Origin: Escherichia coli
GTDB lineage: Bacteria > Pseudomonadota > Gammaproteobacteria > Enterobacterales > Enterobacteriaceae
NCBI RefSeq assembly: GCF_003334815.1
Contig: NZ_QOWO01000032.1
DNA length: 42,979 nt
Strand: one strand, 5' to 3'
Shown: in pieces, positions 28,113-33,316 of the stretch
Position numbering within the stretch: position 1 is the first letter of the stretch
Layout: each line of letters opens with the position of its first letter
Program-made: the position numbers and the translations under genes
The notes under the pieces: generated by a model
What the model saw: the letters and a program-made list of their open reading frames with translations, nothing else
Database searches by the model: none
Told to the model about the DNA's origin: nothing

Positions 28113-28441
28113 TATGCCTAAACACAAAAAATTGTAAAAATAAAATCCATTAACAGACCTATATAGATATTTAAAAAGAATAGAACAGCTCAAATTATCA
28201 GCAACCCAATACTTTCAATTAAAAACTTCATGGTAGTCGCATTTATAACCCTATGAAAATGACGTCTATCTATACCCCCCTATATTTTATTCATCATACA
28301 ACAAATTCATGATACCAATAATTTAGTTTTGCATTTAATAAAACTAACAATATTTTTAAGCAAAACTAAAAACTAGCAATAATCAAATACGATATTCTGG
28401 CGTAGCTATACCCCTATTCTATATCCTTAAAGGACTCTGTT

Positions 28442-29008
28442 ATGTTTAAAGGACAAAAAACATTGGCCGCACTGGCCGTATCTCTGCTGTTCACTGCACC
28501 TGTTTATGCTGCTGATGAAGGTTCTGGCGAAATTCACTTTAAGGGGGAGGTTATTGAAGCACCTTGTGAAATTCATCCAGAAGATATTGATAAAAACATA
28601 GATCTTGGACAAGTCACGACAACCCATATAAACCGGGAGCATCATAGCAATAAAGTGGCCGTCGACATTCGCTTGATCAACTGTGATCTGCCTGCTTCTG
28701 ACAACGGTAGCGGAATGCCGGTATCCAAAGTTGGCGTAACCTTCGATAGCACGGCTAAGACAACTGGTGCTACGCCTTTGTTGAGCAACACCAGTGCAGG
28801 CGAAGCAACTGGGGTCGGTGTACGACTGATGGACAAAAATGACGGTAACATCGTATTAGGTTCAGCCGCGCCAGATCTTGACCTGGATGCAAGCTCATCA
28901 GAACAGACGCTGAACTTTTTCGCCTGGATGGAACAAATTGATAATGCAGTCGATGTCACGGCAGGTGAAGTAACCGCTAACGCAACCTACGTGCTGGATT
29001 ATAAATAA
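28442..29008 (+). CDS. ybgD: Fimbrial major subunit-like protein (type 1 / FimA family)
   Basis: 188 aa with signal peptide (MFKGQKTLAALAVSLLFTAPVYA), internal Cys pair and fimbrial C-terminal strand (…TANATYVLDYK). Confidence 0.88.
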   Translation: MFKGQKTLAALAVSLLFTAPVYAADEGSGEIHFKGEVIEAPCEIHPEDIDKNIDLGQVTTTHINREHHSNKVAVDIRLINCDLPASDNGSGMPVSKVGVTFDSTAKTTGATPLLSNTSAGEATGVGVRLMDKNDGNIVLGSAAPDLDLDASSSEQTLNFFAWMEQIDNAVDVTAGEVTANATYVLDYK

Positions 29009-29067
29009 GTATTATTTTGGCGGCATCATCGCCGCCTTTCATAAAATATTTATCAGGTATGGACACC

Positions 29068-31515: not shown

Positions 31516-31529
31516 TTAAGGAAAAGAGA

Positions 31530-32258
31530 ATGACATTTATTAAAGGATTACCCTTAATGTTGTTAACCATCAGCTTGGGTTGCAATGCTGCGGTGCAACC
31601 CGATCGCACACGCATTGTGTTTAACGCCAATGACAAAGCCACCAGCCTGCGTATCGAAAACCAAAGTGACAAACTGCCTTATCTTGCTTATTCCTGGATA
31701 GAAAATGAAAAAGGGGAGAAAAGCGATGCTCTTCTGGTCGCTTTGCCCCCTATTCAACGTCTGGAACCGAAAGCGACATCGCAGGTGCGGGTTGTGAAAC
31801 AAGCCTCAACCACACAATTACCTGGCGATCGCGAAACGCTATTTTTCTACAATATGCGCGAAATTCCTCCCGCTCCGGATAAAAGCAGCGACCATGCGAT
31901 ACTTCAGGTCGCTATTCAAAGTCGTATTAAATTGTTCTGGCGACCGGCTGCATTACGCAAGAAAGCAGGAGAAAAGGTCGAACTGCAGTTACAGGTCAGC
32001 CAGCAGGGCAACCAACTGACACTGAAAAATCCTACCGCGTATTATCTGACCATTGCCTATCTGGGGAGAAATGAAAAAGGCGTTCTCCCAGGCTTCAAAA
32101 CCGTGATGGTTGCACCTTTTAGTACGGTCAACACAAACACCGGAAGTTATAGCGGCAGCCAGTTTTATCTCGGTTACATGGATGATTACGGCGCATTACG
32201 CATGACGACGCTCAACTGCAGCGGACAATGCCGTTTACAAGCAGTGGAGGCGAAATGA
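31530..32258 (+). CDS. ybgP: Periplasmic fimbrial chaperone (PapD/FimC family)
   Basis: Start at [20 protein letters not shown] giving 242 aa; two Ig-like pilus-chaperone domains. Confidence 0.88.
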
Positions 32259-33316
32259 GTGCTGGCAAGGGATTGTTGCTCGTCATCTGCCTGTTATTTC
32301 TGCCGTTGAAGTCTGCAATGGCGCTGAACTGCTATTTTGGTACATCTGGTGGCGCAGTAGAAAAATCAGAAGCGATTCAACCGTTTGCTGTACCAGGCAA
32401 TGCCAAACCCGGTGATAAGATCTGGGAATCTGACGATATTAAAATTCCCGTCTATTGTGACAACAATACCAACGGCAACTTTGAAAGCGAGCATGTCTAC
32501 GCCTGGGTAAACCCCTATCCGGGGGTGCAGGATCGTTATTATCAACTCGGCGTGACATACAACGGTGTCGATTACGATGCCAGTCTGGGAAAAAGTCGCA
32601 TCGACACTAACCAGTGTATCGACAGTAAGAACATTGATATTTATACCCCTGAGCAGATCATCGCGATGGGATGGCAGAACAAAATTTGCTCGGGCGATCC
32701 CGCTAATATTCATATGTCGCGTACCTTTCTCGCTCGCATGCGGTTATACGTCAAAATACGAGAAATGCCGCCGCATGATTATCAAAGTACGCTTAGCGAC
32801 TATATCGTCGTGCAATTTGACGGTGCCGGTAGCGTTAACGAAGACCCTACTGCCCAAAACCTGAAATATCATATTACTGGTCTGGAAAACATTCGCGTGC
32901 TGGATTGCAGCGTCAATTTTTCCATTTCACCGGAAACACAGGTGATTGATTTTGGTAAATTTAATTTGCTGGATATACGTCGCCACACAATGTCGAAAAC
33001 GTTCAGTATTAAAACGACCAAGAGCCAAAACGATCAATGCACCGACGGATTTAAAGTCAGTTCCTCCTTTTATACCGAAGAAACGTTGGTTGAAGAAGAT
33101 AAAGCATTGTTGATTGGTAATGGTCTGAAGCTACGTTTACTGGATGAAAACGCCTCGCCTTATACCTTCAATAAATATGCTGAATACGCCGATTTCACCA
33201 GTGACATGTTGGTCTACGAAAAAACCTATACGGCTGAACTTTCGTCCATTCCAGGCACCCCCATCGAGGCTGGCCCCTTCGATACAGTGGTGCTTTTTAA
33301 GATTAACTATAACTGA
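32255..33316 (+). CDS. ybgO: Fimbrial adhesin-like / minor subunit protein
   Basis: Start at [23 protein letters not shown] giving 353 aa; last gene of the chaperone-usher operon; overlaps ybgP by 4 nt. Confidence 0.8.

Follow-up and report, generated by a model that had tools for sequence, protein, structure and literature searches.

Identification of a gltA-abrB segment as the Ybg chaperone-usher fimbrial operon of Escherichia coli K-12

We identified the segment encoding ybgD, ybgQ, ybgP and ybgO, with a probability of about 0.9, as the operon for the Ybg fimbriae of E. coli K-12. It is a chaperone-usher system reduced to four genes, which published work assigns to the pi clade. The locus was analyzed within a 42,979-nucleotide stretch of E. 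coli DNA (hereafter, the window), and displays 100% DNA identity to K-12-type E. coli records carrying the same gene names and the same gltA/abrB flanks. Published work already describes this operon, including the clade to which it belongs, how it is distributed, that H-NS silences it and that it can confer adhesion, and the identification is thus correct but ordinary; as a discovery it carries little weight, since the operon has been published and the structure of its adhesin domain has been deposited. The locus comprises four open reading frames on one strand, all of them with Pfam matches far beyond chance, and includes the following features:

28053..28441, no strand: spacer between gltA and ybgD, with the regulatory sequences of the operon; a published H-NS-bound "promoter island" (29.0% GC; published binding of H-NS and RNA polymerase)
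28079..28106, + strand: intrinsic terminator of gltA, a hairpin with a T-run after it, at which the locus is bounded upstream (terminator scan)
28119..28146, + strand: sigma-70-like site TAAACA-16-TAAAAT, candidate ybgD promoter (consensus scan, 9/12)
28442..29008, + strand: ybgD, major pilin, 188 aa (Pfam Fimbrial 31-188, E 9.8e-32; RefSeq ybgD)
29019..29036, + strand: ybgD-ybgQ intercistronic hairpin, GGCGGC-N6-GCCGCC followed by TTT (invariant stem, RNA fold)
29059..31515, + strand: ybgQ, outer-membrane usher, 818 aa with ATG 29059 as start, 815 aa with GTG 29068 (Pfam; PGAP)
31530..32258, + strand: ybgP, periplasmic chaperone, 242 aa (Pfam PapD_N 22-142, 2.4e-34; PapD_C 165-222, 7e-14)
32255..33316, + strand: ybgO, two-domain tip adhesin, 353 aa (Pfam, PDB, AlphaFold, Foldseek)
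32255-32323, + strand: YbgO signal peptide, aa 1-23
32324-32905, + strand: YbgO receptor-binding domain, aa 24-217
32906-33313, + strand: YbgO pilin domain, aa 218-353 (Pfam Fimbrial, 5e-05)

The gene names, their order and the roles of pilin, usher, chaperone and adhesin given in the original prediction are borne out by the identity to annotated records and by the Pfam domains, and the position between gltA and abrB is the same in E. coli records annotated as ybgDQPO. The same prediction described an AT-rich block, which holds for the spacer (29.0% GC) but only in part for the coding region, whose GC deficit is mild: 48.0% in the operon vs. 52.7 ± 2.6% in the 31 other genes of the window. The three genes with the lowest GC content in the window are ybgD (46.7%), ybgP (47.7%) and ybgO (44.9%), and the usher gene ybgQ (50.0%) falls inside the normal range of the window. 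Comparison with the other genes of the window revealed a somewhat lower GC content and an ordinary codon adaptation.

Regulatory region of the operon

The gltA-ybgD spacer comprises 389 nt and has the lowest GC content among the intergenic regions of the window, well below the 51.3% of the window as a whole, a profile matching the AT-rich regulatory region that characterizes H-NS-type loci. It contains the 300 nt of lowest GC content in the window (26%, starting at 28100), and the approximately 330 bp described as very AT-rich, at 28113-28441, indeed have 27.7% GC. On its upstream side, the terminator scan identified the gltA terminator as a 12-pair stem with 6 GC pairs followed by TTTTTATATG, a hairpin kept, with sequence changes, in the 6 strains compared. 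Between strains, the spacer displays only 41-74% identity, with a steady length of ~386-398 nt.

The claim that no strong promoter precedes ybgD appears fair in terms of consensus, since the best sigma-70-like site in the spacer scores 9/12 and the frequency of such sites is not above that in shuffled sequences. This candidate promoter lies ~295 nt upstream of the ybgD ATG, and its sequence is identical to that of a "constitutive" RpoD promoter listed for ybgD by genomic SELEX (PMC3946193). Of the spacer types compared, those of K-12 and L005 alone retain this site, and in O157 its -10 element is deleted.

The description of the locus as cryptic and silenced by H-NS agrees with previous publications. 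The ybgD/gltA spacer figures among 78 "promoter islands" (PMC3661553), and H-NS occupied it in every ChIP-chip data set brought together there (PMC3661553 Table 1); SELEX also located in it both an H-NS site and one for the RpoD holoenzyme (PMC3946193 Table 2), and commensal fimbriae of the Ybg sort were considered cryptic and H-NS-repressed (Wurpel 2013). A search of the spacer for the H-NS high-affinity motif, TCGATAAATT-like, retrieved no match with up to 2 mismatches, a result that is uninformative rather than contrary; binding would therefore rest on general AT-richness.

Two types of fimbrial phase switch were ruled out at this locus. A Pap-like Dam/Lrp switch was rejected on the basis of the absence of GATC sites from the spacer (0 found vs. 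~1.7 expected) and of papI/papB from the locus, whereas a Fim-like invertible switch was rejected given that the spacer contains no inverted repeats besides the gltA terminator and the locus no recombinase gene. No regulator genes were found within the ybg locus.

Pilin, usher, chaperone and adhesin

YbgD, whose gene is preceded by an AAAGGA Shine-Dalgarno sequence, displays the traits of a secreted pilin: a signal peptide ending at VYA|AD, the Fimbrial fold, a Cys42-Cys81 pair and the C-terminal aromatic motif YVLDYK. Downstream of ybgD, the stem of the intercistronic hairpin was invariant in six alleles, with variation in the loop and the flanks, and the region folds at -18.3 kcal/mol (z = -2.7 vs. 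shuffles). This hairpin was missed by the terminator scan because its T-run is short; we infer that it is probably an attenuator or an mRNA stabilizer setting an excess of pilin.

YbgQ contains the N-terminal domain, β-barrel and C-terminal domain expected of an usher (PapC_N 26-165; Usher 183-733, E 6e-189; PapC_C 746-801). Its start codon had been proposed to be either ATG 29017 or GTG 29068. The latter stands as a candidate, but the ATG is found at 29059, where RefSeq/PGAP places the start, and position 29017 reads TTG and is not conserved. Both candidates, ATG 29059 and GTG 29068, are conserved and lie inside the signal peptide, which is cleaved at AMA|VEFN, so that N-terminal mapping of YbgQ would not tell them apart. 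The TTG was ruled out, as O157 has AAG at this position followed by an in-frame TAG, and it lies upstream of the conserved hairpin. The best NCBIfam usher models were StdB (1.2e-192) and Stf-type (2.7e-191). In the scheme of Nuccio and Baumler, the ushers of the pi clade group with PapC, StdB, StfC, SteB, YfcU and YqiG. These best curated models, and the location of the usher gene before the chaperone gene as in pap, would be compatible with a place of YbgQ in this clade, to which ybg is assigned in PMC5216030, citing Wurpel 2013. Assembly of the Ybg usher has been reported to require TAM (PMC11014939).

The ybgP gene is preceded by an AAGGA Shine-Dalgarno sequence, and its product has an N-terminal signal peptide and the two domains of a PapD-like chaperone, with SteC, StfD and StdC as best NCBIfam models. 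The start of ybgO overlaps the ybgP stop (ATGA), with a GGAGG Shine-Dalgarno sequence before it.

YbgO was shown to be a two-domain tip adhesin, with residues 24-217 constituting a separate receptor-binding module at the N-terminus and a pilin fold at the C-terminus. For the N-terminal domain, neither Pfam nor NCBIfam gave a family match, not even to PapG; a sequence search retrieved PDB entries 9RWW and 9RX0, which cover residues 24-217/222 of a YbgO variant differing at ~5 of 194 residues. The AlphaFold model of YbgO has a pLDDT of 88.7, and its best Foldseek matches were the two-domain adhesins LpfD, CupB6, FimH, CsuE, PapG and CfaE; 9RX0, retrieved by sequence, was not among the matches of the Foldseek PDB search. 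Our literature search found no paper describing 9RWW, 9RX0, 9RWU or 9RWE, and in the literature reached neither a receptor of YbgO nor a natural inducing signal of ybg is reported.

Distribution, age and allele classes

In Escherichia, the ybg operon has long occupied the gltA-abrB site; purifying selection acts on it, and deletions have removed it repeatedly. In a survey of complete E. coli genomes (n = 5,426), which scored presence and coverage together with a few annotated examples of disruption, ~77% carried the locus (4,154-4,186), in keeping with its description as accessory-like. The comparison across genomes proposed in the original prediction thus revealed presence and absence, with ~23% of the genomes lacking the operon, deletion scars in these, and a ybgO pseudogene in Shigella flexneri 2457T, indicating that the operon is dispensable. 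Genomes lacking it retain the ybgO 3' end, and hence represent internal deletions rather than empty sites. Previous reports describe Ybg as a "core-associated" fimbria, found at the same locus and often disrupted (PMC3559732), and as "not intact in many strains" (Wurpel 2013).

These losses could be taken to mean that the operon is a decaying relic, never expressed and drifting to pseudogenes, which is kept because deletion is slow, and the silence of the operon in the laboratory, its binding by H-NS and an IS1 insertion in the usher gene of one strain point in the same direction. We consider this improbable, as dN/dS is 0.04-0.14 in all four ybg genes, even between alleles with dS >1.2, at which synonymous sites are saturated, and open reading frame lengths are kept in six strains (188, 818/819, 242/243 and 353 aa). 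Also at odds with decay are the conservation of the two usher start codons, of the hairpin and of the Shine-Dalgarno sequences, the adhesion reported on forced expression and the raised ybg transcripts reported in HUS-associated STEC.

Regarding its origin, the claim of horizontal acquisition holds at most for an ancient event; a recent insertion is contradicted by the presence of the operon at the same site in related lineages, the deletion scars and the absence of mobility genes. A mobile genomic island was ruled out, with no integrase or transposase between gltA and abrB, no flanking direct repeats and no boundary tRNA; no tRNA or other Rfam match was found in 27900-33600. A genomic island confined to K-12-like strains and only recently acquired at this site is highly improbable: despite the coding GC below that of the flanks, the very AT-rich spacer, the flagging of the region as foreign by three older computational methods (compiled in PMC3661553) and the closest non-Escherichia relatives (~60% YbgO identity) adjoining ribB in Enterobacter and Salmonella, the gltA-abrB site is also occupied by the operon in the cryptic-clade Escherichia sp. 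E2593 and in a related Enterobacteriaceae MAG, no IS element was found, and codon adaptation is ordinary. The data are better explained if the Escherichia lineage acquired the operon long ago and alleles were later exchanged by homologous recombination.

Such exchange is apparent at ybgD, which together with its promoter spacer occurs in at least 3 discrete allele classes sharing 70-75% nucleotide identity. Between ybgD classes dS is 1.2-1.7 (saturated) and dN/dS ~0.1; in the adjacent gltA, dS is 0.04-0.11. Among the 4,186 ybgD-positive genomes, identity to the window allele was ≥99% in 923, 80-99% in 5 and 60-80% in 3,258; the ybgD of the window, which belongs to the K-12 allele class, is therefore common to only ~22% of them. 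The spacer and ybgD constitute a cassette of ~1 kb, roughly 28050-29000, which recombines independently of ybgQ, ybgP and ybgO, with crossover points at the conserved gltA 3' end and at the conserved ybgD 3' end and hairpin. For instance, in ATCC 43886 ybgQPO is K-12-like (98-100% identity), yet ybgD is only 75% identical.

Deep, discrete classes under purifying selection, exchanged as a promoter and pilin cassette, suggest that natural populations make use of the fibre and that selection acts on it. More tentatively, and with slightly less than even odds, selection on the Ybg fimbria in nature may be of a long-term balancing or a frequency-dependent kind; if so, the fibre would be made and exposed to antibodies, phages or competitors, and each antigenic type would move with its own regulatory region. 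For studies on E. coli colonization, ybgD typing and glycan screening of YbgO are reasonable follow-ups.

Operation of the fimbria and comparison with known systems

Published data place the start of transcription in the 29%-GC spacer that binds RNA polymerase and H-NS, where the promoter is a candidate, and describe the operon as silent in laboratory culture. The hairpin 3' of ybgD may attenuate read-through or stabilize the ybgD message, yielding an excess of pilin over usher, and the ATGA overlap may couple the translation of ybgP and ybgO. By analogy with the family, subunits would cross the inner membrane via the Sec pathway, be capped by YbgP through donor-strand complementation and polymerize at YbgQ by donor-strand exchange, with YbgO entering the usher first and hence located at the fibre tip. 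Forced Ybg expression is reported to raise adherence to bladder cells (Korea 2010, as cited in PMC6033998), and in HUS-associated STEC ybg transcripts are reported to be more abundant. On this second-hand evidence, Ybg would assemble a surface fibre mediating adhesion.

Among known systems, the segment corresponds to the Ybg fimbriae described by Korea et al. (2010) and Wurpel et al. (2013), being the same locus with 100% DNA identity to the K-12 type and no differences. The Yqi-type system, a four-gene pi operon of E. coli by ribB, resembles it in having a pilin, an usher, a chaperone and a two-domain adhesin, the latter with 37% full-length identity to YbgO, homologous N-terminal domains and solved structures (PDB 9RWU/9RWV); it differs in its site, between zupT and ribB, and in its usher of 840 aa. 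The ribB-site adhesins of Enterobacter and Salmonella are nearer to YbgO (~60%) than the ribB-site adhesin of E. coli. The Std, Stf and Ste systems of Salmonella provided the best curated NCBIfam models for YbgQ and YbgP; however, scores were well below the equivalog cut-offs (e.g., 642 vs. 1289 bits), and Ybg is thus a relative of these systems and not an orthologue.

P pili (pap), the archetype of the pi clade, share with Ybg the usher before the chaperone, the PapC-type and PapD-type domains and a two-domain tip adhesin, PapG being among the fold matches of YbgO. In contrast, minor, adaptor and terminator pilins (equivalents of PapH, K, E and F) are absent from Ybg, as are PapJ and the papI/papB regulators, and its spacer contains no GATC. 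Type 1 fimbriae (fim) are likewise assembled by a chaperone and an usher, and the folds of YbgO and of its pilin domain were matched by FimH and FimA; nonetheless, they belong to the gamma1 clade, have the chaperone before the usher, and are switched by the invertible fimS with the FimB/FimE recombinases, whereas Ybg has neither the inverted repeats nor the recombinase genes.

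Gene set and annotation of the ybg operon

The window is E. coli DNA of the K-12 type. The stretch from 28053 to 33389 is 100% identical to many E. coli chromosomes, and the RefSeq order across it is gltA, ybgD, ybgQ, ybgP, ybgO and abrB. ORFs, domains and RefSeq annotation agree on the four-gene fimbrial set that had been proposed from sequence alone:

Features of the ybgD-ybgQ-ybgP-ybgO operon
28442-29008, + strand: ybgD, Pfam Fimbrial domain (9.8e-32)
29059-31515, + strand: ybgQ, usher, with PapC_N, Usher (6e-189) and PapC_C
31530-32258, + strand: ybgP, with PapD_N and PapD_C
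32255-33316, + strand: ybgO, Fimbrial domain in residues 218-353 only

All four products carry N-terminal signal peptides; well-spaced Shine-Dalgarno sequences precede ybgD, ybgP and ybgO, and the ybgP stop and ybgO start overlap as ATGA. The original prediction left the usher start ambiguous between ATG at 29017 and GTG at 29068. The codon at 29017 is TTG, and in O157:H7 it is AAG followed by an in-frame TAG, and thus it is not the start. GTG 29068 stays a candidate, now beside ATG 29059 (the PGAP choice), both being invariant in six diverged alleles. Both lie within the signal peptide (MDTVNIYRLSFVSCLVMAMPCAMA, followed by VEFN), with PapC_N from residue 26; therefore, the mature usher is identical either way, and the N-terminal mapping formerly suggested cannot decide the ybgQ start. 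TAM is required for YbgQ assembly (PMC11014939).

Directly 3' of ybgD, a hairpin (GGCGGC-N6-GCCGCC then TTT, 29019-29036; fold z = -2.7) displays a stem unchanged in 6/6 alleles, whereas its loop and flanks vary. By analogy with other fimbrial operons, this hairpin may raise the pilin:usher ratio; its conservation between cistrons is mildly new.

Regarding the adhesin, residues 24-217 of YbgO matched no Pfam or NCBIfam family, and correspond to PDB 9RWW and 9RX0, entries named 'Fimbrial protein' that span residues 24-217/222 of a variant with about 5 differences across 194 residues; our literature search found no paper describing them. The AlphaFold model (36 homologues as input) reached a mean pLDDT of 88.7, and its best Foldseek matches were the two-domain tip adhesins LpfD, CupB6, FimH, CsuE, PapG and CfaE. 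YbgO thus joins a receptor-binding domain to a C-terminal pilin domain, bearing out its earlier description as adhesin-like. Increased bladder-cell adherence with Ybg is attributed to Korea et al. (2010), as cited in PMC6033998.

Base composition and H-NS binding upstream of ybgD

The gltA-ybgD spacer (28053-28441) has a GC content of 29.0%, or 27.7% within the limits first proposed (28113-28441), and the 300-nt GC minimum of the whole window begins at 28100 (26%). The suggested comparison with other genes revealed only a mild AT shift in the operon coding sequence (48.0% GC vs 52.7 +/- 2.6% in 31 other genes), with ybgD, ybgP and ybgO as the three lowest-GC genes, the usher gene in the normal range, and unremarkable codon adaptation; the predicted 'AT-rich block' holds for the spacer and only mildly for the coding part. 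The cydA-mngB spacer (9689-10534, 846 nt) displays the second-lowest window GC (29.7%, 300 nt from 10030), and sites for both H-NS and RpoD are tabulated within it (PMC3946193).

As predicted, a consensus scan upstream of ybgD found no strong promoter, its top sites scoring 9/12 and being no commoner than in shuffles. One scan site, TAAACA-16-TAAAAT (28119-28146), is exactly the one tabulated as a ybgD promoter from RpoD-holoenzyme genomic SELEX, and the same table also places an H-NS site in this spacer (PMC3946193). Panyukov and Ozoline count the spacer among their 78 'promoter islands'; it was bound by H-NS in all ChIP-chip studies compiled, and was flagged as foreign by three methods (PMC3661553). 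The predicted H-NS-silenced profile is consistent with this published binding, and the H-NS reading is therefore not new. K-12 fimbriae are cryptic and H-NS-repressed according to Korea et al. (2010), as cited by others. Phase switches of the Pap and Fim types were excluded, as the spacer contains zero GATC sites and zero inverted repeats, with no regulator or recombinase gene nearby. Overall, the original prediction was essentially right in its observations, except for the usher start codon and some overstatement of the AT-rich composition; its interpretation is right, and all of it was already known.

Further features were recorded elsewhere in the window: a tRNA-Lys/tRNA-Val array with RtT repeats (1-700), whose copy arrangement is unlike that of strain CM2; a CpoB thermometer (1519-1657); three matches to Rfam naRNA4, a REP-derived nucleoid-associated RNA, in the sucC-odhB and sucA-sdhB spacers (18221-18383, 22755-22825); an ES036 sRNA match (40207-40249); and, at the right end (42387-42979), ybfD, a truncated ISAs1-family transposase pseudogene. 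Annotation coordinates before 18295 are offset by ~92 nt. Upstream of gltA, a 35-codon ORF (26456-26563; RefSeq hypothetical protein) is kept in all compared strains, and its counterpart in Escherichia sp. E2593 matches Pfam YbgU.

Allele classes and mosaicism

Among six strains, gltA is 97-99% identical (dS 0.04-0.11), and ybgD sorts into a K-12 class, a common class and an O157 class; between these three, identity is 70-75%, dS 1.2-1.7 and dN/dS 0.09-0.14. The entire O157 operon is 74-79% identical to that of K-12 (dS 1.6-2.2, dN/dS 0.04-0.09). A decaying relic is argued against by this purifying selection and by the conserved ORF lengths. Over all genomes, the distribution of ybgD identity is discrete (at least 99% in 923 genomes, 80-99% in 5, 60-80% in 3,258), the K-12 class being a minority (923/4,186 ybgD-positive genomes); phylogroup PCR typing uses a ybgD allele.

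In ATCC 43886, ybgQ, ybgP and ybgO are 98.1, 99.7 and 99.9% identical to K-12, vs 74.6% for ybgD and 64% for the spacer, with breakpoints at the gltA end and at the 3' end of ybgD, hairpin included. Spacer length is steady (~386-398 nt) at 41-74% sequence identity in five compared stretches (L002, L005-L008). The spacer and ybgD (28050-29000) behave as an exchangeable ~1-kb cassette that exists in three or more deeply diverged allele classes, a polymorphism that is mildly new. A second mosaic block (31400-31700; ybgQ 3' end and ybgP 5' end) is 77-83% identical in L005, L007 and L008, vs 92-100% for the flanking usher and chaperone parts. In abrB (33468-34514), dS rises to 0.19-0.25 vs 0.04-0.11 in gltA, which may be a hitch-hiking effect beside the operon.

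Distribution, ancestry and related operons

The ybg locus belongs to the pi clade and the 'core-associated' set, occupies the same site in almost all strains, many of which lack an intact copy, and is found chiefly among commensal and diarrhoeagenic strains (PMC3559732, PMC5216030). In a set of 5,426 complete genomes of E. coli, 4,764 gave some match, 4,186 carried ybgD, and 4,154 had 80% or more of the locus at a single place, in line with the accessory-like character initially assigned. The usher is interrupted by an IS1 element in one genome, and ybgO is a pseudogene in Shigella flexneri 2457T. Both operon-minus genomes inspected carry internal deletions: one lacks the equivalent of 28146-32923 and keeps the last 393 nt of ybgO, and the other lacks 28124-33271 and keeps the last 45 nt. 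Because these scars have different end points and leave ybgO 3' remnants, the operon is ancestral at the gltA-abrB site and was secondarily lost.

The gltA-adjacent position is common to Escherichia sp. E2593 and an Enterobacteriaceae MAG. After ybgO, the former carries a TRAP-transporter and sugar-acid cluster in place of E. coli abrB; in the latter, abrB is absent and nei follows directly. Enterobacter hormaechei and Salmonella enterica carry the closest relatives (YbgO ~60% identity), which share the four-gene order and lie beside ribB, a place held in E. coli by a more distant paralogue.

Four-gene pi-type operons beside ribB, in compared stretches from E. hormaechei, S. enterica and some E. 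coli
L010/L011, 4165-9062
L012, 4179-9074
L017, 3078-8050

Since the Enterobacter and Salmonella ribB-side adhesins are ~60% identical to YbgO vs 37% for the E. coli one, sequence comparison suggests that operon types have been exchanged between the gltA and ribB loci. The ribB-side operon of some E. coli is of the Yqi type, with the same set of pi-type pilin, usher, chaperone and adhesin, the latter represented by PDB 9RWU/9RWV.
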